Made by a program: the position numbers and the translations under genes. Under the pieces are notes generated by a model, which was not told the origin of the DNA, did no database searches, and saw nothing but the letters and a program-made list of their open reading frames with translations. Shown here piece by piece: positions 1,635-63,929 of a DNA stretch of 64,000 nucleotides; the stretch's first letter is position 1, and the number at the start of each line of letters is the position of its first letter. Origin of the DNA: Isosphaeraceae bacterium (lineage in GTDB: Bacteria > Planctomycetota > Planctomycetia > Isosphaerales > Isosphaeraceae); contig JANXSX010000158.1 of assembly GCA_025356475.1 (NCBI GenBank), positions 3,882-67,881 of the forward strand. Direction: 5' to 3'.

Positions 1635-1657
1635 CTAACTCTCAAGTTGAGGTTTAT

Positions 1658-1731: not shown

Positions 1732-1757
1732 TTTTTTTCTGCTAACTCTGCCTGCCA

Positions 1758-2288: not shown

Positions 2289-2486
2289 GCGATCATCCTT
2301 CACGGCAAGAGGCAGTCGAAAGACTCTCCAGCCAACCCGTGGGTTGGCGAATTCTCGATTAAGATTACCCAAAACGGGGGATGTTTGCCAGCGTAGCCAA
2401 CCTTCTCACTCAATAGTTTGGAAGGATGGAAGTCCAATCTCTTCTAGATCCACGCTCTGGATCTGGTCCGGAAGGGTGTAAGACGG

Positions 2487-2912
2487 TCAATCGGTACTGA
2501 CACGGCCAGGGTCGTTGTGCCAAGATCGATCGAACCGGTAACTCACCGTTCGTCCATCTTCTCGGAGAACGTGGTGAGAGAGGCGAGGTGCCCTATCTTC
2601 GTGGGAGAAGGAGAGCCGAGCCAACCATCCGCTTGGTCCCGGACTCACGGAAGTGACCCTCGCGAACCAGCGACGAGTCGTCCATCGGTCGCAGTCACCA
2701 AGTTCAATGGCAAGCCAGACGTGCTCTCCAGGTCCAAGTCGACTTGAGACGCGGACTTCTGCTCCCTCAGTGTCGAGACCGATGACGGTCGCTGTCAAAG
2801 GTTGTGGACGGAATCCGTGGCGGACAAGTTCGAGTCTCACCGGAGCGTTTCGACCTGTCGGCGAGGTATCTCGAAGTTGAATTCTTGCGGTCATACCGAT
2901 TGTTTCCAGCAA
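2487..2912 (-). CDS. Hypothetical protein, weak PilZ-like pattern
   Basis: This is a 141-aa ORF. The segment TATVIGLDTEGAEVRVSSRLGPGEHVWLAIEL resembles the D-x-S-x-x-G strand pattern of PilZ domains, but the RxxxR motif is not canonical (RNAPVR). The start may be the ATG at 2894. Confidence 0.4.
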   Translation of the reverse strand: MLETIGMTARIQLRDTSPTGRNAPVRLELVRHGFRPQPLTATVIGLDTEGAEVRVSSRLGPGEHVWLAIELGDCDRWTTRRWFARVTSVSPGPSGWLARLSFSHEDRAPRLSHHVLREDGRTVSYRFDRSWHNDPGRVSTD

Positions 2913-3033
2913 ATTATCAGGATGCTTGTTCTTCTTGACCGGCAGGTCTGTAGTTGATCATCGCTTGCCAGCGAGCAATCGGCGAGTGTGTACCCCAAAG
3001 GCAACAGTCGAGGTCGAGAATGTGCAACGTCGC

Positions 3034-3255
3034 TTAGGGATTGGAGATGCGTACCGGCTCTGCGGGCTGGGACGGCTGGCGGCTCGCATTCACACCGAGA
3101 GCTTGGCAGAGATACGCGGTCAGAACATGCTTGGTCACATTCAGCCCTAAAATCCCCCAGAGGACACCCTGACGGAACAGCCAGATATTCCCTGCGGCAC
3201 AAGCCACAAGGAGAAGCATCATCGTCAGACTGATCTGGAGTCCGGGATTTTTCAT
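3034..3255 (-). CDS. Possible small two-helix membrane protein
   Basis: This 73-aa ORF has two hydrophobic stretches (LQISLTMMLLLVACAAGNIWLF and GVLWGILGLNVTKHVLTAYLCQALGV). It is the only plausible ORF in the 575-nt gap upstream of nuoBCD. There is no other support. Confidence 0.25.
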   Translation of the reverse strand: MKNPGLQISLTMMLLLVACAAGNIWLFRQGVLWGILGLNVTKHVLTAYLCQALGVNASRQPSQPAEPVRISNP

Positions 3256-3496
3256 AAATTCATTATGTCCAACTAGGATCAGTCCGGACAGATCGTCATC
3301 AGGTGTATCATCCCCGTTCTGATCCAGGTTTCAGACCGGTTTGAGCGAACTGAAGAGTCCGGGGGCTGCCCACTGGCAAGACTTCGGCAATCGGTTTACA
3401 TTACTTCACGTTGCCAAGGTCTCCCGGTTCACTGGCCCTGGGCCTGAATCGAGACCATATTGACCGCCCGGTGTCCATCGATCGAGCTTGCCCACG

Positions 3497-37978: not shown

Positions 37979-40219
37979 TCACTTTTTCGCCAAATTCACT
38001 TGATAGACCTTGCCGTCGAGATTTACAACAACTTCATCCTCAAAGGTCAAGAACTGGTTGTTGGTCGCCGACTGCGAACGAGCCAGCGTGAAATAGGCTT
38101 CGGAAAACTGTTCGACAACAATCGCCTTGGCCTCCTCGTCAGCCTTCACGTCAACGTCGATCCATCGATTATTCCTCTTGAAGAAGGTCTTGGCTCCGAC
38201 CTGTCGAACCGTGGGCTGAATCGGACCTCCACCATTTGGCGATGTCATCATCCCTCCCTTCGTCACCGGTCCCGCAGCCATCATTCCCCCTGATCCTGAA
38301 CCTTGAAGTCCGTATCGGGTTGAGCCACCGCTTGAAATTGAGGAAGGAGCTGCATTCTGAGCTTGGTTGAATGACTGCTTGATTCCTCGTTGTGAGACCC
38401 CGTCCCGACCTGAGACAACCGAGAGCCGACTAAGGCTCTCCATTGCCCGGCCTCGATTGTCTGCCTTGGCATGAAGATTCACGGTTTCATCGGCAAGGAA
38501 TGAGGTATAGGGAGTCAGGATTCCGTGCTTGGTGGAAAGAGCCACCAGTTCATCAGTCAACTCCTTATTATTCCCTTGCAGGTCGATCTGGTCGATGATG
38601 TCGCCGATCCGTCGGATGGCCCAGAGCTTCTCGACAAATTGATAGCCTGACGACCGATCCGAGCTCGCGAGTTCGGCGGGAAACTCAAACGAACGGGTCT
38701 CGGTGCCGACCTTCCCAGCCAGCCGGAGCTTGGTCTGACCCGACTGGCGGTATCGACCAACCCAGACGACCTGACCCCCATCGAAGAGGTCAGGGATATC
38801 GCGAGGGTACGTACGGTTGAGATCGGTTCCAGAAAGTTCAACCTTCAAGTCGGCAAGGGCCGGCGAGGTCAGCTTGGCCGAGAACCGACCGAGCGACCGC
38901 TCGAGATCCTCGTCGGGTTTGACGTATTCCGAGACCCCGGCGTTGCCGCCGCTCAGCCTATCGAGAAGTCGAGCGTTAACGTCAAACCCAACCCCGAAAG
39001 CGAAGAGTCTTGCCTTGTATCGGTTCGCATCTTTTGCATTCTTGGCAATTGCAATCTCCCGCAACTCGCCGGCGGTCGGTAAACCATCGGTCAAAAAGAG
39101 AACATAGTTGGGGCGATCATTGTTCGAGAGCATGCCCAAGGCCGTTTTCAAAGCCCCGTCGATGTTGGTGCTGCCCCCTTCTCGGATGTTGGCGACATAC
39201 CGTTGGGCCTCAGCACGCGATTCGCTGGAGTAACGCTGGAGTTCGGGCTTGAAGGACTCGATTCGGTCGTCGTAAACAACAATGTTGAACAGGTCATCAT
39301 CGCGAAGGTTGTTCAGTAGTCCAACCAGAGCGTTTCGCGCCTGTTCGATCTTCTTGCCTGACATCGAGCCCGACCGGTCGAGCACGAACACAACCGTTTT
39401 GGAACGGGGACGGGCATCGCTGGCCTTGACCTCCGGACTCGCCAGCACGAGGAAGTAACCATCCTCACTCGACTCAGGCCGGTAGCTTAGAACCGTCGCA
39501 CCAAGGGCACCCTCGGAAAGGGTATAAACGAGCCGGAAGTCCTTGTCGGGCCTTATGTCGCGACGTTCATACGTGACGATCACTTCATGGTCGTCACGCT
39601 TGCGAATCTCCGCGTCATCGGTCGGGCAATAGACGCTTTTGATCGGCTCCTTCGAGCGGATCTCAAGGTTGAGTTTGAGTTTTCCAACAGGCTTGGCAGT
39701 GAACTTTTGGGTCCCGAAGGGATAAACAAACTCAATCACCTCGTGGTTGCGTTTGCAGAGCTGGGTGTATCGCAAGGTCACCTTACGATCAGCACCAGGA
39801 GGGATCGGAAAGACGCTGGTTCGATACAGGCCCCGACCCATATATTCGACGAGGGCCGGGTCGCGCCGGGAGCGGACGATCTCCTCGTAGATCTTGCGAG
39901 CTTCGTCTTTCGGGAGCAGTCGGCCTGGCATTTCCTTGCCATCGACCATGAGAACCATGTTTTCGATCGCCCCTTCTTCGGGAAGGGGGAAGAGGTATTC
40001 GGCCTCGATCGTACCGGAACCTGAGTTGTGGAATGTCTGCGAGACGCGTACCTCAGCAACCTGGTCGCGGAGTTGGGCATCGACCATAACCTCGCGGATC
40101 TCGTAGTTGCGACCGGGTGGGGCGGTCGGTCGCCGATCGATGATCAGCCCCTGAGCGCTCAGATCGGGCGTCAAACTCAGCGCAACCAAACCGAGCCAGA
40201 TGCCCTGATGAATCTTCAT
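37979..40219 (-). CDS. Secreted VIT domain + von Willebrand factor A domain protein
   Basis: It has a signal peptide. The VIT pattern is VSQTFHNSGSGTIEAEYLFPLPEEGAIENMVLMVDGKEMPG. The vWA MIDAS is VVFVLDRSGSMSGKKIEQARNAL, GGSTNIDGAL and FLTDGLPT. Confidence 0.88.
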   Translation of the reverse strand: MKIHQGIWLGLVALSLTPDLSAQGLIIDRRPTAPPGRNYEIREVMVDAQLRDQVAEVRVSQTFHNSGSGTIEAEYLFPLPEEGAIENMVLMVDGKEMPGRLLPKDEARKIYEEIVRSRRDPALVEYMGRGLYRTSVFPIPPGADRKVTLRYTQLCKRNHEVIEFVYPFGTQKFTAKPVGKLKLNLEIRSKEPIKSVYCPTDDAEIRKRDDHEVIVTYERRDIRPDKDFRLVYTLSEGALGATVLSYRPESSEDGYFLVLASPEVKASDARPRSKTVVFVLDRSGSMSGKKIEQARNALVGLLNNLRDDDLFNIVVYDDRIESFKPELQRYSSESRAEAQRYVANIREGGSTNIDGALKTALGMLSNNDRPNYVLFLTDGLPTAGELREIAIAKNAKDANRYKARLFAFGVGFDVNARLLDRLSGGNAGVSEYVKPDEDLERSLGRFSAKLTSPALADLKVELSGTDLNRTYPRDIPDLFDGGQVVWVGRYRQSGQTKLRLAGKVGTETRSFEFPAELASSDRSSGYQFVEKLWAIRRIGDIIDQIDLQGNNKELTDELVALSTKHGILTPYTSFLADETVNLHAKADNRGRAMESLSRLSVVSGRDGVSQRGIKQSFNQAQNAAPSSISSGGSTRYGLQGSGSGGMMAAGPVTKGGMMTSPNGGGPIQPTVRQVGAKTFFKRNNRWIDVDVKADEEAKAIVVEQFSEAYFTLARSQSATNNQFLTFEDEVVVNLDGKVYQVNLAKK

Positions 40220-42729: not shown

Positions 42730-43070
42730 TCCTCGCGGTCAAGCCGATATGCCCGACCAGTTCAGCCGTTAGAATCGATCTGATCTTTACAATCGGCAAA
42801 CTCACGACGTGCGCTCACTCTAGCGTTGCAAGTTCTCAGCGGATTAGAATAAAGCCGTTGCAGGAGCGAAGATCCGGCAAGAGAATTACACCGGCTCCCC
42901 AGGACGGCCTGGACCGAGTCGATCTCGCCTTGATTGCCAAGCTTGCCAGGTCGGGTTCAACGGCAATGCGATCAACCATAGTTTCTGGGCTCGATATCGA
43001 GCGAAGACTGCCTCTCTCTGATTAAGGGTAAACGCATCGCACCGGGCCGCAAATTTCGGGAGAGCACGAC

Positions 43071-44741
43071 GTGAGCGACAGCTTGAAGCGGGTCTATGGG
43101 ATCGACCTGGGGACGACCTACTCAGCCATTGCTTATGTCGACGAGCACGGCAAACCTGTCATCGTCCCCAACCAAGAGAGCGAGCGAATCACCCCCTCGG
43201 TCGTTCTGTTCGACGGCGAGAACATCATTGTCGGCAATACCGCCAAAGAAAGCGCAAAAGTCGAAGCGGATCGAGTGATCGGTCGCGTCAAGCAGCAGAT
43301 GGGCGACCCTAACTTCGTATTCGAGCACGACGGCCAGGCCTATTCACCCGAGGATATCAGCTCATTTATCCTCCGGAAGGTTGTTGGTGACGCTCAGATT
43401 GCGCTTGCACTCGATGAGCCGATCACGGATGTCGTCATTACGTGCCCTGCTTATTTCGGCACGGACGAGCGTGAAGCGACGGCGAATGCCGGGCGTCTTG
43501 CCGGGTTGAATGTCCGCGCCATCCTGAACGAACCAACCGCCGCCGCCATCGCTTACGGGCTCGAACAAGGTGAAGACCAGACGGTGCTGGTTTATGACCT
43601 TGGCGGTGGTACTTTTGACGTGACCATGATCGAGATCAAGAATCGCCTGATCCGGGTCGTCTGCACGGGAGGCGATCATCGGCTCGGCGGAGCACTCTGG
43701 GACGAGGCGATCGTCGTTCACCTTGCAGAAGACTTTCGGACCCAGACCGGGCTCGAATCCGACCCGATGGACGACCCCGAGGTCCTCAACGACCTCTTCC
43801 TCCAAGCCGAGCGCGGTAAGAAGACCCTCTCCCAGCGCGAGAAAGCCCCCTTCCGAGTCACCCATTCCGGCCAACAAGCACGGGTGGAACTCGATCGCCC
43901 CAAGTTCGATGAGATTACTAAGCACCTGCTCGATCGGACCGTGGAACTGACGCGAGAGATGCTGGCGGATGCAGCCGCTAAGGGAGTCACGAAGTTCGAC
44001 AAGATCATCCTCGTTGGTGGAGCGACGCGGATGCCGCAGGTCCGCGACCGACTCGTCGCCGAGTTCGGTGGCGACCCCGAAAGCTACGATCCTGACGAAG
44101 CAGTGGCCAAAGGAGCTGCGCTTTATGGGCTCAAAGAGTCGCTCCAAGATGAGGTCATGGCTGTTCTGACTCCGACCAACCCGAACGCGGAAGGGGCAGG
44201 AGGAGTGCTCGATCTCGCTGCCGTCAGCGAGGCCGAAGTCTCTGCGGCGCTCGACAAGATCGAACGCGAGATCGGCTTCACCCTCACCGGACCGGTTCGG
44301 GAGTTGGTCAGTACTCGGATCGTCAATGTTCTCTCAAAGAGTCTTGGTGTCATCGCTAAAGACGATGCGAACAAGTCCGTTGTTGTTTATCTGCTCAAAC
44401 GCAACGGCGAGGTTCCCATGGAGCACTCGGCGGAATTCGGCACCGATTCCGCGAATCAGGCAGGGGTCGACATTCAAGTCATGGCGGGCGAGCGGGATAG
44501 CACCGAGCCCACCGATTGTAAAGATGTCGGCACGGCGACCCTCAACCTGCCGACGGGACTCCCCATGCGGAGCCCGATCAGGGTCAAGTTCTCCATCAGT
44601 AAAGACGGTCGACTGAGTGTGACTGCGACGGATTTGACGGGTGGTGGCTCGATCGATGTCGAGTTTGAAACCGAAGCCGTGATGAACGCAGATGATGTCT
44701 CCGAACGCTCAAGCTCACTTCGGCTCCTGAACGTCTCGTAA
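43071..44741 (+). CDS. Non-canonical Hsp70-family ATPase, lidless (556 aa)
   Basis: It has a GTG start. All NBD motifs are present: YGIDLGTTYSAIA, NEPTAAAIAYG, VYDLGGGTFDVT, IILVGGATRMPQV and DPDEAVAKGAALYG. A beta-sandwich substrate-binding region follows (DIQVMAGERD...IRVKFSISKDGRLSVTATD). There is no helical lid and no EEVD tail. Confidence 0.9.
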   Translation: MSDSLKRVYGIDLGTTYSAIAYVDEHGKPVIVPNQESERITPSVVLFDGENIIVGNTAKESAKVEADRVIGRVKQQMGDPNFVFEHDGQAYSPEDISSFILRKVVGDAQIALALDEPITDVVITCPAYFGTDEREATANAGRLAGLNVRAILNEPTAAAIAYGLEQGEDQTVLVYDLGGGTFDVTMIEIKNRLIRVVCTGGDHRLGGALWDEAIVVHLAEDFRTQTGLESDPMDDPEVLNDLFLQAERGKKTLSQREKAPFRVTHSGQQARVELDRPKFDEITKHLLDRTVELTREMLADAAAKGVTKFDKIILVGGATRMPQVRDRLVAEFGGDPESYDPDEAVAKGAALYGLKESLQDEVMAVLTPTNPNAEGAGGVLDLAAVSEAEVSAALDKIEREIGFTLTGPVRELVSTRIVNVLSKSLGVIAKDDANKSVVVYLLKRNGEVPMEHSAEFGTDSANQAGVDIQVMAGERDSTEPTDCKDVGTATLNLPTGLPMRSPIRVKFSISKDGRLSVTATDLTGGGSIDVEFETEAVMNADDVSERSSSLRLLNVS

Positions 44742-44778
44742 AGCGACTTGAAGAGATTGTTCAAAAGGAGTTGTGCTC

Positions 44779-46842
44779 ATGTCCATTGCCGTTGGGATCG
44801 ACCTTGGGACAACAAACTCTGTTGTGGCTTACCGCAACAGCTACGGTCGTCCTGAGGTCATCCCCAACCGAGACGGACATCCTATCACCCCGTCGGTTGT
44901 CTACTTTGGAACGAATCCTCCCGCGATCGGCCAGGAAGCGAAGGAGTACGCACGGCTGGGGACCGAGGAAGTCGCCAGCTTCTTTAAGCCACATATGGGC
45001 AGCAACCTCTACCAACTGAACTTCGGAAACCAGCTTTACGACGCAACAACTCTCTCCGCGTTGGTCCTGAAACGTTTAAAAGAAGATGCCCAGGCCAAGC
45101 TCGGCCAGGTCGTCGATCGCGCAGTGATCACGGTCCCCGCCTATTTCGGAGACCCCCAACGTAAGGCAACACTCGACGCCGGCCAGCTTGCAGGCCTCAA
45201 TGTCCTGAGAATCATCAACGAACCGACTGCCGCCGCACTTGCCTATGGTCTCCAGAAAACAGGTTTAAGTGAAACAGTTCTTATTTATGACCTAGGTGGT
45301 GGTACCTTCGACGTGACCGTTGCCCGGATCACCTCCGAGGAAATCATAGTCCTGTCCACGGTCGGCGATCATGACCTGGGCGGTAAGAACTTTGACGATC
45401 GAATCGCCACCTTCCTCGCTGAGAAGTTTCGCGCGGATACGGGTCTTGACCCACTCGACGACCCCGTGGCGCTCAACGAGGTTCTCGTCCGGAGCGAGCA
45501 AGCGAAGTGGCAACTCTCCGAGCGGAGTTCGACACGCATCAGCTTGCAACTTGGCTCTGAACGTCGTAGTTATGACCTCTCGCGTCCCGAATTCGAGGCC
45601 ATGACTTCAGCTCTGATGGATCGGACTCGAAGCCTCACCGAAGAGGCTCTCGCGGAAGCAAAACTCGACTGGACCAGGTTGAGCGGAGTCCTACTCGTAG
45701 GGGGCTCGACCCGCATGCCGATGGTTCGCCACTTCGTCCGCGAGATGTCTGGCCAGGATCCTCGGGCCGGGGTCAATGTCGACGAAGTGGTTGCACTGGG
45801 AGCCGCGATCCAGGCGGCGATGGATTCTGGACTCCCGACCAGCGATGCGACCCCTCAGTTTTCACTCGCAGGTGCGCGTCGGGTTGTCGACGTGATGTCC
45901 CATAGTCTCGGCGTCGTGGCTCGCAGCCCCGACAATTCCGCCTACATCAATGAGATCATCGTTCGCCGCAACCAACCGATCCCGGCAGACGACTCAAAGT
46001 CCTATCTGCACTCAACGTATGGTGGTGCCAACGACCGACTGGAAATCTATCTGACCCAAGGCGAAAGTGAACGCCCACTCGATTGCACCGTGCTTGGTAA
46101 ATACGTTTTTACCGGAATTTCGGCGACTGATGCAGAAGTGCAGGTTGATGTCAAAATGTCTTACGATATCAACGGTGTCGTGCAGGTCGGTGCCCTCCAG
46201 CGTGATACGGGACATCGACTCGCAATGACCGTAGAGAAGGTGCCCAACGATCTCTCCTGGTTGGGCCGTCCGCCGCAGAGTGCACAGATTGGCCAAGAAG
46301 CCGATCCCACCTCGATCTATTTATTGATCGACGTCTCTTCGAGCATGGCTGGCCCCCCACTTGAGGAAGCGCAAGCCGCAGCTCGTGCGTTCCTGGAAAA
46401 GTGCGATTTCACAAGAGCCGAGGTTGGGCTAATCTCGTTCTCGAATCAGGTCACACTCGAAGCTGAGGCCACGGACAACCCACGCCGAGTCCAAGCCGGC
46501 ATCGGTCGCCTGGAAGCTGACGGGACGACGAACCTGACCGACGCCTTAGAATTAGCACACGTGAAGCTCACCCTATCCGCGCGACGTAAGTATGTCGTGC
46601 TCTTGACCGACGGCTATCCCGACGCGCCCGAGAGTGCCGTCCAGCAGGCTGTCCAGTCGCGAGAGGCGGGTATCGAAATCATTGCGATAGGGACTGGGGA
46701 CGCCGACCGGGATTATCTGCGACGCCTTGCCAGCACAGACGAGGGCTCGATCTTTGCACCCAGTGGCGAACTTGTTCATACCTTCGGGCATATTGCTCGT
46801 GCGATCGCTCAAGGGGGCCGTGGGTTGCGGAAGATGCCATGA
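44779..46842 (+). CDS. Hsp70-family ATPase fused to a C-terminal von Willebrand factor A domain
   Basis: AAGGAG lies 8 nt upstream of the ATG at 44779. NBD motifs are GIDLGTTNSVVA, NEPTAAALAYG, IYDLGGGTFDVT, LLVGGSTRMPMV and NVDEVVALGAAIQA. The SBD-beta-like part is LEIYLTQGESE...VKMSYDINGVVQVGA. From about 46315 there is a vWA domain with a complete MIDAS: YLLIDVSSSMAG, DGTTNLTDAL and VVLLTDGYPD. Confidence 0.9.
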   Translation: MSIAVGIDLGTTNSVVAYRNSYGRPEVIPNRDGHPITPSVVYFGTNPPAIGQEAKEYARLGTEEVASFFKPHMGSNLYQLNFGNQLYDATTLSALVLKRLKEDAQAKLGQVVDRAVITVPAYFGDPQRKATLDAGQLAGLNVLRIINEPTAAALAYGLQKTGLSETVLIYDLGGGTFDVTVARITSEEIIVLSTVGDHDLGGKNFDDRIATFLAEKFRADTGLDPLDDPVALNEVLVRSEQAKWQLSERSSTRISLQLGSERRSYDLSRPEFEAMTSALMDRTRSLTEEALAEAKLDWTRLSGVLLVGGSTRMPMVRHFVREMSGQDPRAGVNVDEVVALGAAIQAAMDSGLPTSDATPQFSLAGARRVVDVMSHSLGVVARSPDNSAYINEIIVRRNQPIPADDSKSYLHSTYGGANDRLEIYLTQGESERPLDCTVLGKYVFTGISATDAEVQVDVKMSYDINGVVQVGALQRDTGHRLAMTVEKVPNDLSWLGRPPQSAQIGQEADPTSIYLLIDVSSSMAGPPLEEAQAAARAFLEKCDFTRAEVGLISFSNQVTLEAEATDNPRRVQAGIGRLEADGTTNLTDALELAHVKLTLSARRKYVVLLTDGYPDAPESAVQQAVQSREAGIEIIAIGTGDADRDYLRRLASTDEGSIFAPSGELVHTFGHIARAIAQGGRGLRKMP

Positions 46843-47687
46843 ATGCGAATCTCAAGCAAATGAAAGAGCTTGGGCTCGCTGGTGCCTTGGGTGCGGTCTT
46901 CGGCCTCTACCTCTTCGTTGAGTTAGTCCAGACCGACTCCATCTGGCTCCGTGACGTTCTGGCGGGAGTCGCGATTGGAGGCTCGATCGGGTTCTTCCTG
47001 AATGGTTCGACCCCTCTTCGGGACAGCGCCTACCTCGGCTTCTCGCGGGCCGCGAGTTTGGGCACGCTCGCTGGTGCGGTGGGTGGAGCGGTCGGCTTGC
47101 TCGTTGGCGAGCTAATCTTGGGAACATTTCAAGGCGGATTGGTTGGGCGAGCGGTCTCGTGGTCGGTCCTCGGCCTCGGTATCGGTACAAGTCAGGGAGT
47201 CGCCAGTAAATCAGGTGCAAAACTCACCTTTGGCGTGATCGGCGGTACGATCGGTGGGTTTGTGGGCGGGTTCCTCTTTGAAGCGATCCGGGACCTCTTC
47301 GGCAACCGTTACGACCTTGGACAGGGGCTCGGAGCTGTCGTCTTGGGCGCAGGACTTGGGATCTGTCTTGCGTTGGTGGAACAGGTTCTCCGTCGCGCAT
47401 GGATCGAGGTTAAGAGTGGCCGTCAGGAAGGACGGACTTATCTCATCGACCACAAATCTTGTACCCTTGGTCTCGACGAACATGTCGAAATCGGTCTTTT
47501 CGGCGACCTCTCCGTGGCCAGGAAGCATGCCATGATCGAGTCGACCGCGACCGGTTACTACCTAAAGAACGAATCCGTTTCTGGGGAAACCCGGGTCAAC
47601 GGCGGTCCCATCCAAGGTCCGAAATTGCTTGTGAATGGTGATATGATCGAACTTGGCAAGACACGACTCGTTTTTCGGAGTCGCTAA
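46839..47687 (+). CDS. Glycine-zipper polytopic membrane protein with C-terminal FHA domain
   Basis: The start overlaps the upstream stop (ATGA). The N-terminal roughly 190 aa carry repeated GxxxG-rich hydrophobic segments (GALGAVFG, GVAIGGSIGFF, GTLAGAVGGAVGLLVG, GVIGGTIGGFVGGFLF, GAVVLGAGLGICLA). The C-terminal FHA pattern is CTLGLDEHVEIGLFGDLSVARKHAMIE...YYLKNESVSGETRVNGGPI...LLVNGDMIELGKTRLVFR. Confidence 0.85.
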   Translation: MNANLKQMKELGLAGALGAVFGLYLFVELVQTDSIWLRDVLAGVAIGGSIGFFLNGSTPLRDSAYLGFSRAASLGTLAGAVGGAVGLLVGELILGTFQGGLVGRAVSWSVLGLGIGTSQGVASKSGAKLTFGVIGGTIGGFVGGFLFEAIRDLFGNRYDLGQGLGAVVLGAGLGICLALVEQVLRRAWIEVKSGRQEGRTYLIDHKSCTLGLDEHVEIGLFGDLSVARKHAMIESTATGYYLKNESVSGETRVNGGPIQGPKLLVNGDMIELGKTRLVFRSR

Positions 47688-47705
47688 CGCAAGCGAGGAA
47701 CCCGA

Positions 47706-49094
47706 GTGCCCCAGGTTGCGAAAGGCTGGAGTCTGATCATCGAACGTGGCCGCGAGCCCGGGCGTAGATACGCGTTGAAGGGATCTTCAGTAGTCCTGGG
47801 TGCTTCGCCCGAGCCAAGCGAAGGGCTTGCGCTGATGGACCAGGAGGGAAATTCACCCAAGCGAATGGCCCCGCGTCAGGCGCTTCTCGAAGCTCAGGGG
47901 GACACGTGGACCTTGCGTGACCTCGATAGCGCTGGCGGCACTTTCGTCAATCGTCAACGGGTTCTCTCAGGGCAGGCTCGGCTCCTTTCCGATGGTGACG
48001 TCATCCAGCTCGGCTCGGTCCACCTCAAGTTGAATTCTACAAGTGAACTTCCAAGCATCCCGAACGTTCCCAAAACCGAATGCCATTGGCCATTGCTTAT
48101 CGGTGGCGGGATGAGCTGTCGTAGCTTTGATGAGATTTTGCCGGTCTCAGCACAGCGGTGGACTCTGCTTCGAGACGAACTCGTGAAAGGCGAACTCGCC
48201 ACGAAGCTGGTCGCTTTCGGTCGCCCCGACCTTGCGCCCAGAGCCAATCACCCAGGTTCCGCCGACGAGCGGCTCGATGCCTGGCTTTCCTCACTACCGA
48301 CGACAAAACCGGCCCAAGCTGAGATCGAGGTTCATCCCCAGCGGCTAGTGATCGCGAGCGCGCCAGGTTCCGCTCATCGCCGGACCCTGCAAATCAGCAA
48401 CGTCGGTTTTGGTCTCCTCAGAATCAAGGCCCGGGTCGAGCCCGCCTCGGCGGCTTGGCTCAAGGTCATTCCTCCCTGGAATACGGAGACACATGTTGTC
48501 GATGCATTCACAGGAAGCATTGAAGTGATCGCCCCCGACTCGTTTACGAAGCCAGTCCAAGCCACTCTCGTGCTTGAGACTCGGGAACGGACTTGTCGAG
48601 TCGAAGTCGTTCTGGAACCGACAACGAAACGAACGGCACCAGGCCCATCAACGATTGCGGGTACGCAGGCATTAGGAATATTCGATCGATGGCAAGAGTT
48701 TCCCCTTGGCACACGATTGTTCACCACAGCCATAGTCGCAGCAATGTTGCGACTCCTCATAGGACTGGCCAATCTTCTGATAGGTGACTCGCCGACGGAT
48801 TTGCGTGGTCCGATCCTCGTGTTCGCGGGTCTGGGGGCAATCTTAGGTCTGGCCACATTGCGCTCAAGAGCAAGGGGCTTGGATCTCGCGTTTGTCGCGA
48901 CCGCCGGGGCGGGTGTTGGTCTGATCTTGGCCGTCATGATTGTCGCCGTGGCCCGCGCGGGCGAACCAATCCTGGGGTCTTTGAGCACCGTGTTGCCAGT
49001 CGTCGTCCTCGTCTGGGGGCTAGTCGCTCTACCTGTAAGCTTGATGACATCTCATGGTCCGAATCGATCCAAAGATAAGGGAAAGATTGCATGA
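47706..49094 (+). CDS. N-terminal FHA domain protein with beta-sandwich-like middle region and C-terminal transmembrane cluster
   Basis: It has a GTG start. The FHA pattern is RRYALKGSSVVLGAS...RQALLEAQGDTWTLRDLDSAGGTFVNRQRV...LLSDGDVIQLGSVHLKL. The middle segment IEVHPQRLVIASAPGSAHRRTLQISNVGFGLLRIKARV looks like a PapD/ASH-type Ig fold. Three to four hydrophobic helices lie at the C-terminus. Confidence 0.85.
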   Translation: MPQVAKGWSLIIERGREPGRRYALKGSSVVLGASPEPSEGLALMDQEGNSPKRMAPRQALLEAQGDTWTLRDLDSAGGTFVNRQRVLSGQARLLSDGDVIQLGSVHLKLNSTSELPSIPNVPKTECHWPLLIGGGMSCRSFDEILPVSAQRWTLLRDELVKGELATKLVAFGRPDLAPRANHPGSADERLDAWLSSLPTTKPAQAEIEVHPQRLVIASAPGSAHRRTLQISNVGFGLLRIKARVEPASAAWLKVIPPWNTETHVVDAFTGSIEVIAPDSFTKPVQATLVLETRERTCRVEVVLEPTTKRTAPGPSTIAGTQALGIFDRWQEFPLGTRLFTTAIVAAMLRLLIGLANLLIGDSPTDLRGPILVFAGLGAILGLATLRSRARGLDLAFVATAGAGVGLILAVMIVAVARAGEPILGSLSTVLPVVVLVWGLVALPVSLMTSHGPNRSKDKGKIA

Positions 49095-50086
49095 GCATGC
49101 GATTACTTATTCTGGTCTTTCTGGCGATTTCCGGAACTTTACTGGCACAGGACCGTTCGGTCGTGGTCACCCAAGTCGACGAGAAGGGTTTCCCCGAGGT
49201 CAACCTGGAACTTGAGGTTCGGAACATTGATGGGACGTTTCTGCTCGACGCCTCTCGCGAATCGTTCCGAGTGACGGAGTACGATCGCAACGTCGAGATC
49301 CTCAAGTTCAACGCACCCCAGTCGCTCCAGCGCAAGCCGACAACAATCGTTTTAGTCGTAGATCATAGCGGCAGTATGCGGGCTGAGGATCGGATCGGCG
49401 GGATGAAACGTGCGGTTGCATCGTTTCTAGAAGGTCTGCCCGAGGGGTCACGAGTGGCGGTGATCGGGTTTAGCTCTCAGGTGCGAGTGATCTGCCCTTT
49501 CACGGAGTCTTTCAATGATGTTCAAGCCGCCGTTGATGGACTCTCTCCGATGGGTGGGACTCGGTTTTACGATGCTGTGGCCGAAGCGCTTAGGCTCATC
49601 GGTGAGGAGCCAGGGCGTCGGTCGGTTCTTGCCCTGACCGACGGGATCGACACCGAGAGTCGCGAAGCGTCGATCGAAAGTGTCGTCAAACTCGCCCGAA
49701 AATTGGGTTTGCCCGTCCATACGCTGGGACTTGGAAACGAAGCCTTGATCGCCTCCGACGGCATGCGCGTCATGGCCGAGTCGACACGAGGCCAATATTA
49801 TCCCGCAGTCGATGCCGCGAAGCTCAAATCGATTTATGAAGAAATCGCCCTTCGTCTCCGGTCAAGCTACAGCCTAACCTATCGGACCGATCGACCGCTC
49901 CAGGACGGGACCCTCCGGCCCGTGAAGGTCTACTTTGAAGGGATCACCAAGGCCGCTGAAGCTGCTGTGTATGTGCGCGGAATGGTCGTGCCCGCCAGAG
50001 GATGGTCATGGCTGTTTGTGGTCTTGGTCTCAGGGCTGGCAATTGCCCACTGGCTTCCATGGGGTCGCGTCTCAACGCCAACATGA
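49091..50086 (+). CDS. Membrane-anchored von Willebrand factor A domain protein (signal peptide + C-terminal TM)
   Basis: The start overlaps the upstream stop (ATGA). The signal segment is LLILVFLAISGTLLAQD. The vWA MIDAS is IVLVVDHSGSMRAEDR, MGGTRFYDAV and VLALTDGIDTES. The C-terminal helix is WSWLFVVLVSGLAIAHWL. Confidence 0.88.
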   Translation: MSMRLLILVFLAISGTLLAQDRSVVVTQVDEKGFPEVNLELEVRNIDGTFLLDASRESFRVTEYDRNVEILKFNAPQSLQRKPTTIVLVVDHSGSMRAEDRIGGMKRAVASFLEGLPEGSRVAVIGFSSQVRVICPFTESFNDVQAAVDGLSPMGGTRFYDAVAEALRLIGEEPGRRSVLALTDGIDTESREASIESVVKLARKLGLPVHTLGLGNEALIASDGMRVMAESTRGQYYPAVDAAKLKSIYEEIALRLRSSYSLTYRTDRPLQDGTLRPVKVYFEGITKAAEAAVYVRGMVVPARGWSWLFVVLVSGLAIAHWLPWGRVSTPT

Positions 50087-50982
50087 CACCACCTGCGATC
50101 CGTTACCCTCTGCCTGCCCTTGCACTCTTGGTGCTACTCGGCCTGGTCACTTGGCGTGGCGCAGATGGCGTGCAGGCGATTCGCAGCGACCTGACATCAA
50201 GGTGGGCGAAGCTCACCGAGCGACCGGCTGTCCCATTCCCTGCCTCCACCGATCCGCTGGTCCTGGCAGGTGCGATCCATGAGCGTGTTCTGATCCTTGA
50301 GGATGAAGTTCCCTACTCATCGCAGCCTGACGGACCGACGATTGGGTTTATTCGACATCGAGAGTTCGCGGACTTTTATGATCGTTGGCCGATCAAGGGA
50401 GATGCGACTCACATTCGGGTCGGGAATCGTCGGCCACTCGGCTGGGTGGAAATTGGAAAGGCCATTTCTTGGACGACGCGACTCGTGTTGTTACCATCAG
50501 AGGATCATGCGTCGATCTTGACTGAGAGCGGGGCGAGCTTCGATCTGAAAGGGAGCCCGAAACCGATCCTCGGGCAGAATCCCAACCAACTCCACATCCA
50601 TAACTGGGGAGAGACTGGCGCGTGGCACGTCGGCGGGCAGGGGGTTGTGCTCAAGGCCGACACAGTCCCAGCGAACTGCTGGGGGGTCTGGTTGACCCGA
50701 TCCGAGTTGCTGGCCCTCATTGGTCGGGATCGGTCACAGTTGAACACATCTACGAGCAGGCCTAACCTTGTGATCAGGGCGTTGCTCGGTCTGCCGATTA
50801 ACGACCGACCGCTCTCCAGTGAAGAGACGGGGATGGCGCTGACATTGCTTGGACCGGCTGTCTCCCAAGAAGGTGTGACAACCAAGCTCGATGCACTCGC
50901 CAGATTGAACGAAGAGTGGAAGCCCGATGCCGTCTGGGGTGGTGTCGAATACCGTGGAGTGCGACTTATTGATATCCCATGA
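50083..50982 (+). CDS. N-terminally anchored protein of unknown function, last gene of the Hsp70/vWA/FHA operon
   Basis: The ATG at 50083 overlaps the upstream stop (ATGA). The N-terminal hydrophobic helix is PLPALALLVLLGLVTW, followed by about 270 aa in which I recognised no motif. Confidence 0.7.
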   Translation: MTPPAIRYPLPALALLVLLGLVTWRGADGVQAIRSDLTSRWAKLTERPAVPFPASTDPLVLAGAIHERVLILEDEVPYSSQPDGPTIGFIRHREFADFYDRWPIKGDATHIRVGNRRPLGWVEIGKAISWTTRLVLLPSEDHASILTESGASFDLKGSPKPILGQNPNQLHIHNWGETGAWHVGGQGVVLKADTVPANCWGVWLTRSELLALIGRDRSQLNTSTSRPNLVIRALLGLPINDRPLSSEETGMALTLLGPAVSQEGVTTKLDALARLNEEWKPDAVWGGVEYRGVRLIDIP

Positions 50983-51211: not shown

Positions 51212-51520
51212 TTAAGATAAGAGAATGATAGGGTTGCCGATCATTCGATCGGTCTGATCGTGGAAACTGTAGTAGAAGAACGCCCAGCCGAAGAGCGCAA
51301 AACCCATCCAGAATGCTCGGGCTGGTCCACGGCGCAAGACTGCCCCAACGGTTGCAAAGCAGATTGAACCCAGATAGATCAGAAACATCACTGAGAACCA
51401 AAGCCGGTTCGCGTTGATCAGGGAAGTCAGACCGATCGCGATGAACATGACATACGCCAGCAAGCCGGCAATCGACATCGAACTACGCTCAGGTGTTCTC
51501 ATTCTAAGGTCTCTCAACAT
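51212..51520 (-). CDS. Small three-helix membrane protein
   Basis: This 102-aa ORF has three hydrophobic segments. Its start overlaps the end of gluQ by 7 nt on the same strand. Confidence 0.5.
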   Translation of the reverse strand: MLRDLRMRTPERSSMSIAGLLAYVMFIAIGLTSLINANRLWFSVMFLIYLGSICFATVGAVLRRGPARAFWMGFALFGWAFFYYSFHDQTDRMIGNPIILLS

Positions 51521-52467
51521 TTGAGGATCTCGCCTAAGATTTCCTGGGTCAACTTCCAGGGCTCGTCCGGCAACGTTAGTGAAGCCGACAGACCTAACAG
51601 ATCGATCGGAAGGCCTCCGATCACCGGAACTGGCCAGCCGCAGGAGCGAGCCAAGATCCCTATCAATCGCCGAGGATGCACACCTTGGTCTCGCAGACTC
51701 GCCAGCTTGATCGAATGTTCACGCTTAGCGAGCCGTCGACCGTCGGTTCCGACCACAAGTGGGATATGGGCGAAGCTAGGAGGATCGAGCTTGAGGGCAT
51801 CATAAAGCAAGAGTTGGCGGGGCGTGCTGGAAACCAGGTCGTCGCCACGGACGACTTGGGTGATTCCCATCGCCGCATCGTCAACGACAACGGCCAACTG
51901 ATAAGAGATTGCCCCATCGGATCGAGCAACCACGAAGTCGCCGCCGGTCCTGGTAGGGTTGATTGAGACGATTCCTTTGACCTCGTCGGTCCAAGTTACG
52001 AGCTTGGCGGGGACCCGGAACCGCCAGGCGAATGGCTGATCGATTTTGACAGCATCGTCGGCCTGCCGCCACGCACAAGTGCCAGGATAGGCAGGACCTT
52101 CGTCTTCTTCGTGTGGGGCAGAGACGGCTCGGGCAATATCCGACCGCGTACAGGTACACCGGTAGACGAGGTTACGCCGACGCAAGACGTCCAAAGCAAG
52201 CCGGTACGTTTCTATACGCAAGGATTGGACGTAAGGACCTTCATCCCAGGTCAGGCCGAGCCATTGCAGGTCATTGTAAATGCCTTCGATCGCGTCTGCT
52301 CGGACCCGACCGGCGTCCAAGTCCTCGACTCGGAGGACAATTTTCCCCGCCGCCGTTTTGGCCGCCACCCATGCGGCCAAGAACGTGCGAGCATGTCCCA
52401 GGTGCAGACCACCCGTTGGCGACGGGGCCATTCGACCAGTCGGTGGGCGGGGATTTTTGAATGTCAT
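51514..52467 (-). CDS. gluQ: Glutamyl-Q tRNA(Asp) synthetase (truncated GluRS paralog)
   Basis: It has the class I HIGH region GRMAPSPTGGLHLGHARTFLAAW. At about 317 aa, it is catalytic-domain only, with no anticodon-binding domain. A Zn-cluster-like CTCTR...YPGTC is present. Confidence 0.85.
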   Translation of the reverse strand: MTFKNPRPPTGRMAPSPTGGLHLGHARTFLAAWVAAKTAAGKIVLRVEDLDAGRVRADAIEGIYNDLQWLGLTWDEGPYVQSLRIETYRLALDVLRRRNLVYRCTCTRSDIARAVSAPHEEDEGPAYPGTCAWRQADDAVKIDQPFAWRFRVPAKLVTWTDEVKGIVSINPTRTGGDFVVARSDGAISYQLAVVVDDAAMGITQVVRGDDLVSSTPRQLLLYDALKLDPPSFAHIPLVVGTDGRRLAKREHSIKLASLRDQGVHPRRLIGILARSCGWPVPVIGGLPIDLLGLSASLTLPDEPWKLTQEILGEILKC

Positions 52468-60677: not shown

Positions 60678-63600
60678 TCAGGGACTTCCATATAAGACAT
60701 ATCCTGCCCAGTGGACAGGGTCGGCAAACTTCGGGTTCCTAGCCAGTGTCTCTCTCGCGTTGACGAGGGATTCGCCTGGGCGAAGTCCCTCGATCAGTCC
60801 GCGTTGAAGTTCGTCGATCATGATGGGGGCGGACGCGTCCGGCGGCTTCCAAAGCGGGAGGACGACCGCCGCAGAGCCCGTAAGAATCGCTCCGTGGGCG
60901 AATTGCTCCAGAGACCGGCCGGACGTGAGTTCGCCCCGAGAAGGATCAACCCCGGCGACGATCAGAGTTCGCGTTCTGATGGCTCGATCGTTGAAGCTGC
61001 CCGATCGGAGTTGAACGGACTCCGTCCCAGATTCGGATGAGTTGAGGACCGAATTTCGACCCATGAATGCAGAAAGGGTCGTCGACTCCAGTGATCCAGC
61101 CTCGACCCGCAGCCCATTTGTCCCCGCGAGTTCCTTCCAAGCTGCCATTGTCGATCGATCTATCCCTGGGACGGACGAGTCATCGTTGGGTAGGCCCACC
61201 GATTTGCTGGGAATCATAGGCCTAGGCCGAGTGAGGAGGAGGTCAAGCGACGTTGCGCGTGAGAGTTCGTACCGTCGATAGAGGCGTCGTTCCCTCCCGG
61301 TGACTTCGACCGGCATGGCACTCAGCGACTCGTCCAGAACCAGGGTCAGCCGAGAGACCCCGATCAATCCCGCATTGAATCGACTGATCAGCACATCGTC
61401 GAGCAGGGACTCCCAACTATAGGGTAAACCCGGAGGTTTTGGCCCTGCTCCCGTGAGTTCGGGTTCAGGCGCTAGCGGCCCAAGCGGGAGGTCATCCGCA
61501 GGAGACCGGTAATCGGCGAGGCCCCGACCTCCGTCTCCGAGTCTGCTTCGCCAGGTCCGGACGATCCGATCGAGTTCTAGGCGTCCGAGCGTAATTCGAC
61601 CCACTTCGAGTGGCTGACCGCCTCGAATCAAGAAACCAACGAGTGATGTGTTACTCACAACAGTGAACGCCAAAATCGCCTCGGTCGGCCCGAGCTTGAA
61701 CTCGCTCGGATCGAGACCAACGTGTGGGTCGGGCCGATGGGTGGCCACGGCCAGAGCGTGAAGGGGCCGGTTCGCTGCGAGTTCGATGCGGATCAAGCCC
61801 CGCTCCGTCCTTGCGACAACTGCAGGCTGGTTGCTTTGCATCGCAGCTCGGTACGCTTTCGTGGCCTCGGCGGTCAGGTCGAGCTTCTCCAAAATTTCGG
61901 CACGTTCCAGGTTGGCAAGGGCCGCTAGGTTGATGTTTCCGGCGTGACGGTGAAGGTCGGCGGCTCGAAGGAGAGGTTCGATCGCCAGTCGGCGGTTTGT
62001 CCCGGTGGCGAGCCTTCGGCCTTCGGAATGAGGGTCGTCACTCGGTTCGACGACCAGGTTGGCTCGGCTACGGACCGTGACGCGGGCGAGGTTCCATTCA
62101 GCGTCTCCTGGTCGAGCTCGATCCAGAGCCTCAATTGCGGACGACCAATCTCCCGAGGACGCGGCGGCCACCGCAATCCGAAGTCGGTTGGATCGAGCAA
62201 GGTTCTTGTGTTCACCAGTTGGGATGTGATTGAGGACAGCGAGCGCCTTTTGCTGGGCTTCACCAAGGTTGCCGCGAGCCAGAGCCACTTGCGATTGGAG
62301 ATTGAGCCAATCCAGCGACTCCGCTATCACAGGATCGGAATTTGCGAGCCCAATGATCCGCTCGAGACGTTGCTCCGCCTGGGTGATCTTACCCTCCGCT
62401 AGATCATTGGCAATGAGCAGTGCCTGGGCAATCAACCGAGTCCGCGTTGCATGCGTAGAGGTGTTCATCGTCGCTAGGAACTCATCAATCACAATGCGTG
62501 CGCGGGTGGGGTCGCCTGTTCGATTGGTGTCGGGATCAGGGGTCAGCAACACGGCTTTCCAAAGCATGATGTCGGCTGATCTGTCGTGCAGGCCAACGAT
62601 TTCGAAGCTCGCCTGGGCGCTGTCGAGCGTCTTGATTACGGTCTCAATAGACCGCCCTGCATTTTGTTCGCTACTCGCTCGAAGTGCGGCCACTTCGGCG
62701 GCAGCGTGTCGGTCCAAGCCTGGGTCGGCTTCAAGGATTCTGATCAGTCCAGTGAGATCGGTAGTCGGGTCGCGATCAAGGCGCTTGCGAGCCTCGTCAA
62801 GTTTCCGGGCCAAGGCTTCGGGGAACTCCGCCTCGGTGGACTCGACCCGTGGACGATAAAGACGCCGCCAGGGTCGGAATGCAAGCTCAGCCGCATCGTC
62901 GAGTGAAAACTTCAGTGATCGTCTGATCAAACCCTCAGCATCAAGAACCTCAATGCGTCCTGAGTCGTCGGCGATCGCAAGGCGACGCCCCTCGGGATCG
63001 ACCGGATCAACAGAGACCACTGCCGATGTGAGAGGGAGTTCCTGCCAGAGCGAAACTGGCTTTGCCCCGTGCTCGGAACAGGGAATGATCAACAGCCGAG
63101 TCGGCAGAGCGACCGCAAGTTGACCGCCCGCTGACAGCCAGTCAAGGCCGAGAGGGCAGCCGGGAAGGGCCCAACGTCTCGGGGGCACGCGACCTGGTCG
63201 TCCTGCAATTTCGACGGATGCCTCACCTCTGGCACGTGCCAACCCTCCCTGAGGATTGATCTTCACCAGAGCATCGGTCGATGGCTTCAAGTCCGATTCG
63301 AGCTTGATCCGTTGATGATTCGCCAGGGTGACGACCCAGCCTCGATCACTGCCGACTCGGTGGATAGCAACCACACCCTGCTCTGCATTGCTCGCCTTGG
63401 CCGTTGCGGTTGGTCCGATGAGTTGGTCGGTGCCCATGAGCACATATCGGTTGATCTGCCCATTCGCATAACCCACGAGTAGTGGGCCACCCGATTCGTG
63501 ACCAGGGGCGAGGGCAGTCACATTCCCGTCCTTGTGCTGGGACAGGATCCTAGCCACGCCGTCACCGAGTTCCCAAAAAGTCAGACCCTGCAAATCGCCC

Positions 63601-63929
63601 GTGATCGGTAGGCCCGGCGGTGTGAGTGCCAGAGCTTGGACGGTCACCCCAGGAGGGGAAACCGTGACCGGTTCAGGCGTACGATCTGGCCAGTAGATGG
63701 CGAATCGACCATCTGCGAACCGAACACCTAGACGCCGCGATGAGACCGGACCTCCCCAGGCAATTTCGACCACAGCGGCCGACCAGCCTTCAGGACGAGT
63801 GAGGGTCAAACCATCGGTGAGCTCAACGGGTCGCATCAACACAACAGGTCGTGGCGTGGCGACCTGAGAATCACAACCGACCGCGACCACACATAGGGTC
63901 GCGAACAACGCCCGAAGGAGCCGGCTCAC
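60678..63929 (-). CDS. Lipoprotein with beta-propeller-like N-terminal region, TPR-like helical repeats and C-terminal CHAT domain (catalytic dyad apparently degenerate)
   Basis: It has a GTG start. The lipobox is LCVVAVGC. The CHAT C-terminal signature is GSAAVVLPLWKPPDASAPIMIDEL...DPVHWAGYVLYG. The expected His (HxxxHG) and Cys (LSAC) positions read NSVLNSSESG and LIVAGVD. Confidence 0.75.
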   Translation of the reverse strand: MSRLLRALFATLCVVAVGCDSQVATPRPVVLMRPVELTDGLTLTRPEGWSAAVVEIAWGGPVSSRRLGVRFADGRFAIYWPDRTPEPVTVSPPGVTVQALALTPPGLPITGDLQGLTFWELGDGVARILSQHKDGNVTALAPGHESGGPLLVGYANGQINRYVLMGTDQLIGPTATAKASNAEQGVVAIHRVGSDRGWVVTLANHQRIKLESDLKPSTDALVKINPQGGLARARGEASVEIAGRPGRVPPRRWALPGCPLGLDWLSAGGQLAVALPTRLLIIPCSEHGAKPVSLWQELPLTSAVVSVDPVDPEGRRLAIADDSGRIEVLDAEGLIRRSLKFSLDDAAELAFRPWRRLYRPRVESTEAEFPEALARKLDEARKRLDRDPTTDLTGLIRILEADPGLDRHAAAEVAALRASSEQNAGRSIETVIKTLDSAQASFEIVGLHDRSADIMLWKAVLLTPDPDTNRTGDPTRARIVIDEFLATMNTSTHATRTRLIAQALLIANDLAEGKITQAEQRLERIIGLANSDPVIAESLDWLNLQSQVALARGNLGEAQQKALAVLNHIPTGEHKNLARSNRLRIAVAAASSGDWSSAIEALDRARPGDAEWNLARVTVRSRANLVVEPSDDPHSEGRRLATGTNRRLAIEPLLRAADLHRHAGNINLAALANLERAEILEKLDLTAEATKAYRAAMQSNQPAVVARTERGLIRIELAANRPLHALAVATHRPDPHVGLDPSEFKLGPTEAILAFTVVSNTSLVGFLIRGGQPLEVGRITLGRLELDRIVRTWRSRLGDGGRGLADYRSPADDLPLGPLAPEPELTGAGPKPPGLPYSWESLLDDVLISRFNAGLIGVSRLTLVLDESLSAMPVEVTGRERRLYRRYELSRATSLDLLLTRPRPMIPSKSVGLPNDDSSVPGIDRSTMAAWKELAGTNGLRVEAGSLESTTLSAFMGRNSVLNSSESGTESVQLRSGSFNDRAIRTRTLIVAGVDPSRGELTSGRSLEQFAHGAILTGSAAVVLPLWKPPDASAPIMIDELQRGLIEGLRPGESLVNARETLARNPKFADPVHWAGYVLYGSP

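Follow-up and report, generated by a model that had tools for sequence, protein, structure and literature searches.

What might a pair of Hsp70 chaperones be doing in an operon whose other products are membrane proteins with FHA folds and an exported von Willebrand factor A (vWA) protein? The question is raised by six adjacent genes, here termed g1 to g6, in a 64,000-nucleotide stretch of DNA from an Isosphaeraceae bacterium (GCA_025356475.1, contig JANXSX010000158.1, positions 3,882-67,881 of the forward strand), the whole of which is hereafter called the window. These genes encode respectively an Hsp70 paralogue, an Hsp70 fused to a vWA domain, two FHA-fold membrane proteins, an exported vWA protein and an anchored protein of a family without a name. 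We propose, with slightly better than even confidence, that the operon is a vertically inherited, Isosphaeraceae-specific derivative of the HSP70/GrpE theme of the GAP1-N2 GTPase-centric systems, and that its products form an Hsp70-driven membrane complex mounting a thresholded response.

Provenance of the Hsp70 pair

The Pfam HSP70 model matches g1 with E = 6e-108 and g2 with E = 3e-122, and g2 additionally matches VWA (E = 6e-20) over residues 515-661. Both proteins retain the ATP-binding motifs of the nucleotide-binding domain (NBD), which are conserved in 100 family members, and the β-sandwich of the substrate-binding domain (SBD-β), as seen in the Pfam matches and in alignments to DnaK. 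Alignment to DnaK (PDB 2v7y) resolves g1 into an NBD at residues 6-380, an insert of about 60 residues and a divergent SBD-β at residues 440-535. Matches of the two proteins to DnaK profiles stop near position 495 of 599-625, and hence both lack the helical lid; their NCBIfam DnaK scores of 357 bits (g1) and 402 bits (g2) lie below the equivalog cut-off of 648. At the start of the SBD the family bears the signature DVxxHSLG, where DnaK reads DVTPLSLG. The vWA domain of g2 has a metal-ion-dependent adhesion site (MIDAS) comprising DVSSS at residues 520-524, the Thr of GTTN and the Asp of LTDG, and the corresponding columns are invariant throughout the Hsp70-vWA fusion family. These results bear out a preliminary description of the locus, which had recognized two lidless Hsp70s with ATP-binding motifs and a β-sandwich, the second of them ending in a vWA domain with a complete MIDAS.

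At an identity of 70% or more, the homologues of g2 form over 120 clusters, which are without exception Hsp70-vWA proteins, and those with names come from Isosphaeraceae (Tundrisphaera, Singulisphaera, Tautonia and strain EP7). Among 1.84 billion representatives searched, there were further at least 100 clusters (at 50% identity) of full-length Hsp70-vWA fusions, which are 35-48% identical to g2 and keep both the ATPase and the MIDAS columns. A tblastn search of 72,556 plasmids with g2 returned ordinary DnaK and HscA only and no fusion, and universal Hsp70 motif patterns run against viral contigs returned giant-virus Hsp70s only, among the matches listed.

The genomic contexts of the pair were surveyed in a genome scan that used the SBD motif DVxxHSLG as its seed and in which each species was represented once; the best 80 of the 322 relatives obtained were analysed as loci. 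About 43 of these (type A) show a stereotyped operon in the order GrpE, g1-like Hsp70, g2-like Hsp70-vWA, a roughly 1000-aa protein that combines a double zinc ribbon (ZnR) with TPR and FN3 domains, DO-GTPase2 (PF19993), GAP1-N2/GAP1-M (PF20013, PF20014) and a membrane DO-GTPase2 with transmembrane (TM) segments; the ZnR/TPR/FN3 protein is present in 43 type A loci. They span at least nine phyla including archaea, with hosts among the Bacteroidales, Bacillota, Thiotrichaceae (Gammaproteobacteria), Aminicenantes, Zixibacteria, Acidobacteriota, Gemmatimonadota, Ktedonobacteria (Chloroflexota), Verrucomicrobium, Planctomycetaceae and, as methanogenic archaea, Methanosarcina and Methanomassiliicoccales. 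In the cyanobacterium Aetokthonos GrpE and the Hsp70 pair occur without the other type A partners. A further 33 of the 80 loci (type B) are of the kind found in the window and all come from Isosphaeraceae-like Planctomycetota.

In gene order and domain content the type A loci match the description of the HSP70/GrpE theme of GAP1-N2 GTPase-centric systems, which was predicted computationally to comprise an HSP70, GrpE, an optional second HSP70 and an FNIII protein, and for whose bearers a role as NTP-dependent conflict systems acting near the membrane was predicted (Kaur, Burroughs, Iyer and Aravind, eLife 2020). The text of that study does not describe FHA membrane proteins, an anchored vWA protein or g6 as partners and does not mention the Hsp70-vWA fusion, and no Singulisphaera or HSP70 entries occur in the portion of its supplement that we consulted. 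One type A system, that of Metabacillus litoralis (locus L098), is preceded by a gene (297-4187) for a 1296-aa protein with DUF11, TSP3 repeats, a vWA domain and a lipase-3-like domain, which may be an extracellular vWA or effector component of that system.

Over the NBD alone g1 and g2 are 43.7% identical to each other, and g1 is 51.7% identical to the type A g1-like protein as against 42.4% to the g2-like one, with g2 showing the reverse preference (48.6% to the g2-like and 42.4% to the g1-like protein). On these identities each of the two is orthologous to the corresponding paralogue of the type A pair and, as the resemblance is paralogue-specific, the duplication that gave rise to them is older than the divergence of the two locus types. 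Taken by itself, the pair of Hsp70 and Hsp70-vWA is far older and more widespread than the six-gene operon.

Relics of the type A arrangement persist in type B. In at least nine type B loci g1 is preceded, at a distance of a few kb, by a GrpE gene of like orientation; these loci belong to Tautonia, Singulisphaera acidiphila, two other Singulisphaera strains and several metagenome-assembled genomes (MAGs), and at four of them, including those of Tautonia and of the MAG locus L154 discussed below, a DO-GTPase2 gene lies upstream of GrpE. The type B GrpE proteins match that of the Metabacillus system with E-values of 1e-27 to 1e-32. GAP1, the FN3/ZnR/TPR protein and the TM-GTPase are present in none of the 33 type B loci. 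In the window itself, profile hidden Markov models for GrpE, DO-GTPase2 (built from 40 sequences), GAP1 and the FN3 protein found no match at E <= 10 among the open reading frames (ORFs). The absence of GrpE remarked on in the preliminary description therefore holds for the window but is particular to it, since at least nine relatives keep a dedicated GrpE upstream. These comparisons show that g1 and g2 descend from the Hsp70 pair of a GAP1-N2 system, in which GAP1, the FN3 protein and the TM-GTPase were replaced by g3-g5.

Conservation of the operon within the Isosphaeraceae

The genes g1-g5 are collinear in all 22 type B loci that contain all five, most of the other type B loci ending at contig ends, and their order recurs in Singulisphaera, Tundrisphaera, Tautonia, Paludisphaera and many MAGs. 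The operon is not a chance association, and its earlier reading as one conserved unit stands for g1-g5 across the genera of the family. The suggestion that the six-gene order might recur across phyla did not hold: elsewhere only g1-g2 recurs, with other partners. Within its one family the operon seems to occur once per genome and to be passed on vertically.

In Tundrisphaera lichenicola and Tautonia rosea the g1-g5 order is kept with an unrelated gene between g1 and g2, and the g1-g2 junction is therefore not strictly coupled. The insert is a Uma2-family gene in Tundrisphaera (locus L005, 9314-9997) and a gene for a 221-aa protein with two TM segments in Tautonia (locus L006, 9282-9947). Such tolerated insertions, along with a MAG that has no g3-g5 (L154), could be taken to mean that g1-g6 are independent neighbours without a joint function; we regard this as very improbable given three 4-nt start/stop overlaps between the genes and the same order and strand in every covered locus, in genera with differing flanks.

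Median identities of the window proteins to their type B orthologues are 79% for g1, 71% for g2, 59% for g3, 56.5% for g5, 37.5% for g4 and 36.7% for g6, a gradient in keeping with an engine that is conserved and with membrane and outer parts that diversify. Of the 33 type B loci 10 have the sixth gene, which follows g5 in nine and comes right after g2 in L154. A g6 homologue of 41% identity (P0004) on a 3.6-kb contig of JGI metagenome 3300047160 has a pair of DUF190 genes, and no vWA gene, immediately before it; the g6 family therefore also occurs outside the operon context. This placement at first suggested that g6 is unrelated to the system, a notion that we rejected in view of its presence downstream at 10 loci.

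Locus L154 (Isosphaeraceae MAG, CAZRGV010000057.1, 6047-13332) encodes in succession DO-GTPase2, GrpE, a VIT-vWA protein on the opposite (-) strand, g1, g2, g6 and a TM-TPR protein, without g3-g5. Its layout suggests that whatever follows the Hsp70 pair can be exchanged as a module, although the locus is possibly an assembly artefact. An orthologue of the VIT-vWA protein, which in the window is encoded upstream of the operon, is found upstream in at least eight type B loci (median identity 62.5%), where its gene lies between the GrpE gene, itself preceded by DO-GTPase2 in some loci, and g1. The protein has a signal-peptide-like N-terminus and may be an accessory of the system, its membership being putative.

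Membrane proteins with degenerate FHA domains

In g3 the Pfam FHA and Yop-YscD_cpl models match the C-terminus, after four to six hydrophobic segments. Residues 1-188 contain multiple transmembrane segments and residues 189-282 a cytoplasmic FHA fold; the membrane region, with 20.5% glycine and 18 GxxxG motifs, appears for this reason to be glycine-zipper-like. Conversely, g4 begins with its FHA domain (residues 1-112; Pfam FHA E = 1.6e-11, with Yop-YscD_cpl matching here as well), followed by a hairpin and helical domain (125-196), an ASH/PapD-like immunoglobulin sandwich (207-305) and four TM helices (334-449). An AlphaFold2 (AF2) model of g4, with a predicted local distance difference test score (pLDDT) of 86, gave Foldseek TM-scores of 0.8-0.89 to the FHA domains of GarA and OdhI, and residues 207-305 gave Foldseek matches to the PapD-like domains of HYDIN and OCRL. 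The opposite orders of TM and FHA parts noted earlier for the two proteins are thus corroborated by Pfam and hydropathy. The FHA domains are homologous to each other (hhalign probability 97.8), whereas the transmembrane regions show no detectable relation (6%), and the idea that g3 and g4 are circular permutations of each other was rejected on the latter count.

FHA domains typified by GarA, a canonical phosphothreonine reader, contact the phosphate directly through an Arg and a Ser. Relative to GarA, g4 shows Gly-Ala in place of Gly-Arg (the family consensus being Gly-Asn), Ala-x-x-Gln in place of Ser-x-x-His and Gly-Gly in place of Asn-Gly, while in g3 the Arg is replaced by Leu, the Ser by Ala and the Asn by Gly, with the His alone kept. 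These substitutions in the phosphothreonine pocket are conserved in 33 g4 homologues and 32 g3 orthologues, one g3 orthologue (L131) retaining the Ser of the SxxH motif. Both domains have thus kept the FHA fold while the residues that bind phosphothreonine are absent. Yop-YscD_cpl, which matches both, is the phospho-independent FHA-like domain of the basal bodies of type III secretion systems (T3SS). With such degenerate pockets the want of a kinase or phosphatase beside the operon is what would be expected.

The preliminary description had cast g3 and g4 as phosphothreonine readers, a model under which their FHA domains would read marks set by unlinked Ser/Thr kinases and recruit the Hsp70-vWA protein to the membrane. 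The FHA fold itself is upheld by Pfam and Foldseek, planctomycetes encode many Ser/Thr kinases, and the residual His of g3 and Ser of its L131 orthologue could be read in favour of the model. Against it stand the replacement of the binding residues throughout both families, the shared match to a phospho-independent domain, and the fact that no kinase or PP2C phosphatase is encoded in the operon or the tested flanking genes and none recurs beside the operon in the 33 type B loci. We therefore consider phospho-dependent docking improbable on account of the degenerate pockets, and the two families add a clear bacterial case of FHA domains that seemingly gave up phosphothreonine recognition.

Exported and anchored partners

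Pfam VWA_2 and VWA match g5, as does NCBIfam TIGR03436 (91.6 bits against a cut-off of 81.25), alongside weak matches to BatA/BatB. Its MIDAS comprises DHSGS at residues 91-95, GGTR and LTDG. Hydropathy and motifs give the order of a signal-peptide-like N-terminus, a β-rich N-terminal domain, the vWA domain and one C-terminal TM anchor; as the N-terminal hydrophobic segment, MSMRLLILVFLAISGTLLA followed by QD, resembles a cleavable signal peptide and the anchor is single, the vWA domain would be extracytoplasmic. Of the earlier view of g5 as a vWA protein anchored at both ends, the C-terminal anchor is retained and the N-terminal one gives way to the signal peptide.

The protein g6, earlier noted as anchored and free of recognized motifs, indeed has no Pfam, NCBIfam, PADLOC or PDB sequence match. 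The alignment of its family contains many invariant residues, including an N-terminal PPIRYPLP motif accompanied by a TM anchor. Its AF2 model is poor (pLDDT 61.5), and Foldseek returned weak matches to tandem SH3b cell-wall-binding domains; with TM-scores of only about 0.2 over the whole model, we treat this likeness as a hint only.

A proposed mechanism and its principal alternative

On the reading that the operon is a derivative of the HSP70/GrpE theme, the two lidless Hsp70s would hydrolyse ATP, with nucleotide exchange being helped by the dedicated GrpE that relatives keep upstream, while the SBD-β clamp and the MIDAS of the g2-fused vWA domain would grip portions of g3 and g4 that face the cytoplasm. 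Docking would need no phosphorylation and would take place on the degenerate FHA domains, much as on scaffolds of the YscD type. In this way the ATPase cycle would control how a membrane complex made up of the glycine-zipper-rich g3 and the four-helix g4 is assembled or which conformation it takes, and the outer side of this complex would be coupled to ligand-binding modules in the form of the g5 vWA domain, g6 and possibly the VIT-vWA neighbour. In line with what has been proposed for the parent systems, the membrane is predicted to respond, above a threshold, to a cue of extracytoplasmic or invader origin. That a chaperone ATPase would act here with a vWA adaptor, much as MoxR does, was part of the preliminary description and agrees with the classification of the related systems by Kaur et al. 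(2020).

A conflict role is favoured by the orthology of the core pair to patchy, cross-domain systems with variable partners and by the steep conservation gradient. Several observations weigh on the other side. The operon sits in housekeeping surroundings, is single-copy and vertically inherited, was not encountered on plasmids and has no PADLOC match, a pattern that a cell-biological role fits as well as a conflict role. It contains no recognisable toxic or effector domain, no J-domain partner was identified, and literature searches yielded no experimental study of interaction, ATPase activity or phenotype for any member of type A or type B. Further, with no DO-GTPase2, GAP1 or GrpE within the window, the operon is tied to the GTPase systems by descent and, in this organism, not necessarily by function.

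The same facts lend themselves to an alternative in which the locus is a lineage-specific module for envelope or cell-surface maintenance akin to the MoxR-vWA/Bat systems, its Hsp70 pair assembling or repairing a complex that anchors exported vWA proteins, with no part in encounters with phages or other invaders. To the genomic pattern just described this adds the 71-79% conservation of g1 and g2 across the whole family, the exported vWA proteins including the conserved VIT-vWA neighbour, the BatA/BatB likeness of g5 and the TM-TPR protein of L154, as in Bat operons. It accounts less readily for a core pair orthologous to systems whose patchy distribution across domains of life and variable partners are more typical of conflict, or for the rapid divergence of g4 and g6 (about 37% identity). 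We regard this alternative as possible, if rather doubtful; judged by sequence, the membrane response could serve either conflict or maintenance.

A bolder version of the Hsp70-driven membrane complex, which we consider unlikely, would make the Hsp70 pair in Isosphaeraceae the sole motor of an autonomous trans-envelope machine, in which a glycine-zipper channel or scaffold, phospho-independent FHA docking and exported vWA/SH3b-like ligand sensing are combined. It is clearest in the organism of the window because no GTPase or GrpE is encoded nearby. If true, it would give the first example of a device dedicated to membrane signalling or effector action that runs on Hsp70 and not on AAA+ ATPases or GTPases.

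More generally, the lidless Hsp70 pair with one vWA-fused member emerges as an ancient and portable module that has been wired to quite different partners by lineage, namely to GTPases, GAP1 and the FN3 protein in most lineages, and to FHA-fold membrane proteins and an exported vWA protein in the Isosphaeraceae. The Isosphaeraceae version, with fewer parts and stable inheritance, could offer a simpler experimental entry to the predicted Hsp70/GTPase conflict systems.

Organization of the locus and its surroundings

The six ORFs of the window (Table 1) coincide in coordinates and common strand with those given in the preliminary description, and the ORF list and a reading of the junctions likewise support its overlaps and gaps. 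Four-nucleotide ATGA start/stop overlaps mark the g2/g3, g4/g5 and g5/g6 junctions; g1 and g2 are 31 nt apart, counted to the GTG at 44773, and g3 and g4 are 18 nt apart. An alternative start for g2, the ATG at 44779, would yield 687 aa.

Table 1. Coordinates of the operon genes and the divergent neighbour in the window
Feature	Position	Strand	Description
g1	43071..44741	+	Lidless Hsp70 paralogue, 556 aa
g2	44773..46842	+	Hsp70 (NBD and SBD-β, without lid) fused to C-terminal vWA, 689 aa
vWA domain of g2	46315..46839	+	Residues ~515-689
g3	46839..47687	+	Membrane protein with C-terminal FHA fold, 282 aa
g4	47706..49094	+	FHA fold, then C-terminal transmembrane helices, 462 aa
g5	49091..50086	+	Exported vWA protein, 331 aa
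g6	50083..50982	+	N-terminally anchored protein, family without name, 299 aa; accessory sixth gene
VIT-vWA neighbour	37979..40219	-	Secreted, 746 aa, divergent from operon; Pfam VIT and VWA

Pfam searches of the operon and the tested flanking genes found no J-domain, GrpE, MoxR, kinase or PP2C, in agreement with what had been observed for the operon earlier, and no DUF58 gene in the operon or the flanking genes. The CIRCE heat-shock operator was not found in the window, and a scan of the operon for sigma-70 promoters and terminators gave counts at or below shuffle expectation. A 24-nt near-palindrome, TCTGGGCTCGATATCGAGCGAAGA, at 42984-43007, about 65 nt upstream of the g1 start, could be an operator.

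The surroundings consist of housekeeping genes such as nuo, prf, glyA and rnd. One ORF at 3488-6067 (+) unites NuoB (20 kDa), NuoC (30 kDa) and NuoD (49 kDa) in 859 aa, an unusual triple fusion, and a dip in the AT-skew of the window at 8-12 kb falls on the genes of the membrane subunits NuoH and NuoL/M. Convergent with the operon end is a gene at 51514-52467 (-), preceded by a 102-aa hydrophobic ORF at 51212-51520, for a 317-aa protein that has only the class I Glu/Gln tRNA-synthetase catalytic domain and resembles a GluQRS/YadB-type paralogue. About 10 kb downstream of the operon, at 60678-63929 (-), lies a gene whose 1083-aa product carries at its C-terminus a CHAT (caspase-like) domain, which is frequent in conflict or signalling proteins.

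Comparison with known systems

No model of PADLOC-DB v2 matched g1-g6 at E <= 0.01, in a check that the preliminary description had called for, and PADLOC run on the type A components of L098 and on the DO-GTPase2 of Tautonia (L006) gave chance-level matches only. Searches of the full-text literature yielded no account of a variant with FHA-TM and vWA-TM proteins. The earlier statement that no characterised system has this composition is thus right in that no experimental characterisation was found, but the Hsp70 pair already figures in the computationally described GAP1-N2 systems; the six-gene operon is accordingly not a wholly new system, and it is the FHA-TM/vWA-TM partner set that is new.

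Modules combining vWA, FHA, kinase and phosphatase components, such as the TerY-P triad and the PpkA-PppA-Fha set of type VI secretion systems (T6SS), likewise bring vWA and FHA domains together in one neighbourhood. Unlike these, the operon has no kinase or PP2C, its FHA pockets are degenerate and it has no PADLOC TerY-P match. With the canonical DnaK-DnaJ-GrpE system it shares a conserved NBD with ATPase motifs and an SBD-β, and relatives have GrpE as well; it is not such a system, because the lid is missing, the scores fall under the cut-offs, no J-protein is encoded in the operon and there is no CIRCE element.

FHA-fold membrane scaffolds are known from several secretion systems, including the cytoplasmic domain of YscD/EscD/PrgH in T3SS, Fha/TagH in T6SS and EssC in type VII secretion systems, and YscD-type FHA domains are also without phosphothreonine-binding residues. 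In g3 and g4, too, an FHA fold is attached to TM segments and matches Yop-YscD_cpl. They differ in that no secretion genes adjoin the operon and in their membrane parts, a multi-TM region of glycine-zipper type in g3 and four helices in g4; moreover, no Hsp70 partner is known for the secretion scaffolds.

The MoxR-vWA systems (the ternary systems, RavA-ViaA and the Bat operon) resemble the operon in pairing an NTPase chaperone with a MIDAS-bearing vWA adaptor, in having membrane-anchored vWA proteins and in the proposed remodelling of a dedicated complex. The ATPase of the operon is, by contrast, an Hsp70 of the actin-like fold where those systems have an AAA+ protein; it carries the vWA domain as a fusion, and neither MoxR nor DUF58 is present.

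As regards the GAP1-N2 DO-GTPase systems, the operon cannot be counted as a member, because the window encodes no GTPase, GAP1, FN3 protein or GrpE. Type B loci as a whole are without GAP1, the FN3/ZnR/TPR protein and the TM-GTPase, and in place of these the partners are two membrane proteins with degenerate FHA domains, an anchored vWA protein and g6. What the two have in common is an orthologous Hsp70 pair, the GrpE and DO-GTPase2 genes still found near the operon in many Isosphaeraceae relatives, a predicted location close to the membrane, extracytoplasmic vWA proteins and possibly SH3b-like modules, and both kinds of system occur in planctomycetes.

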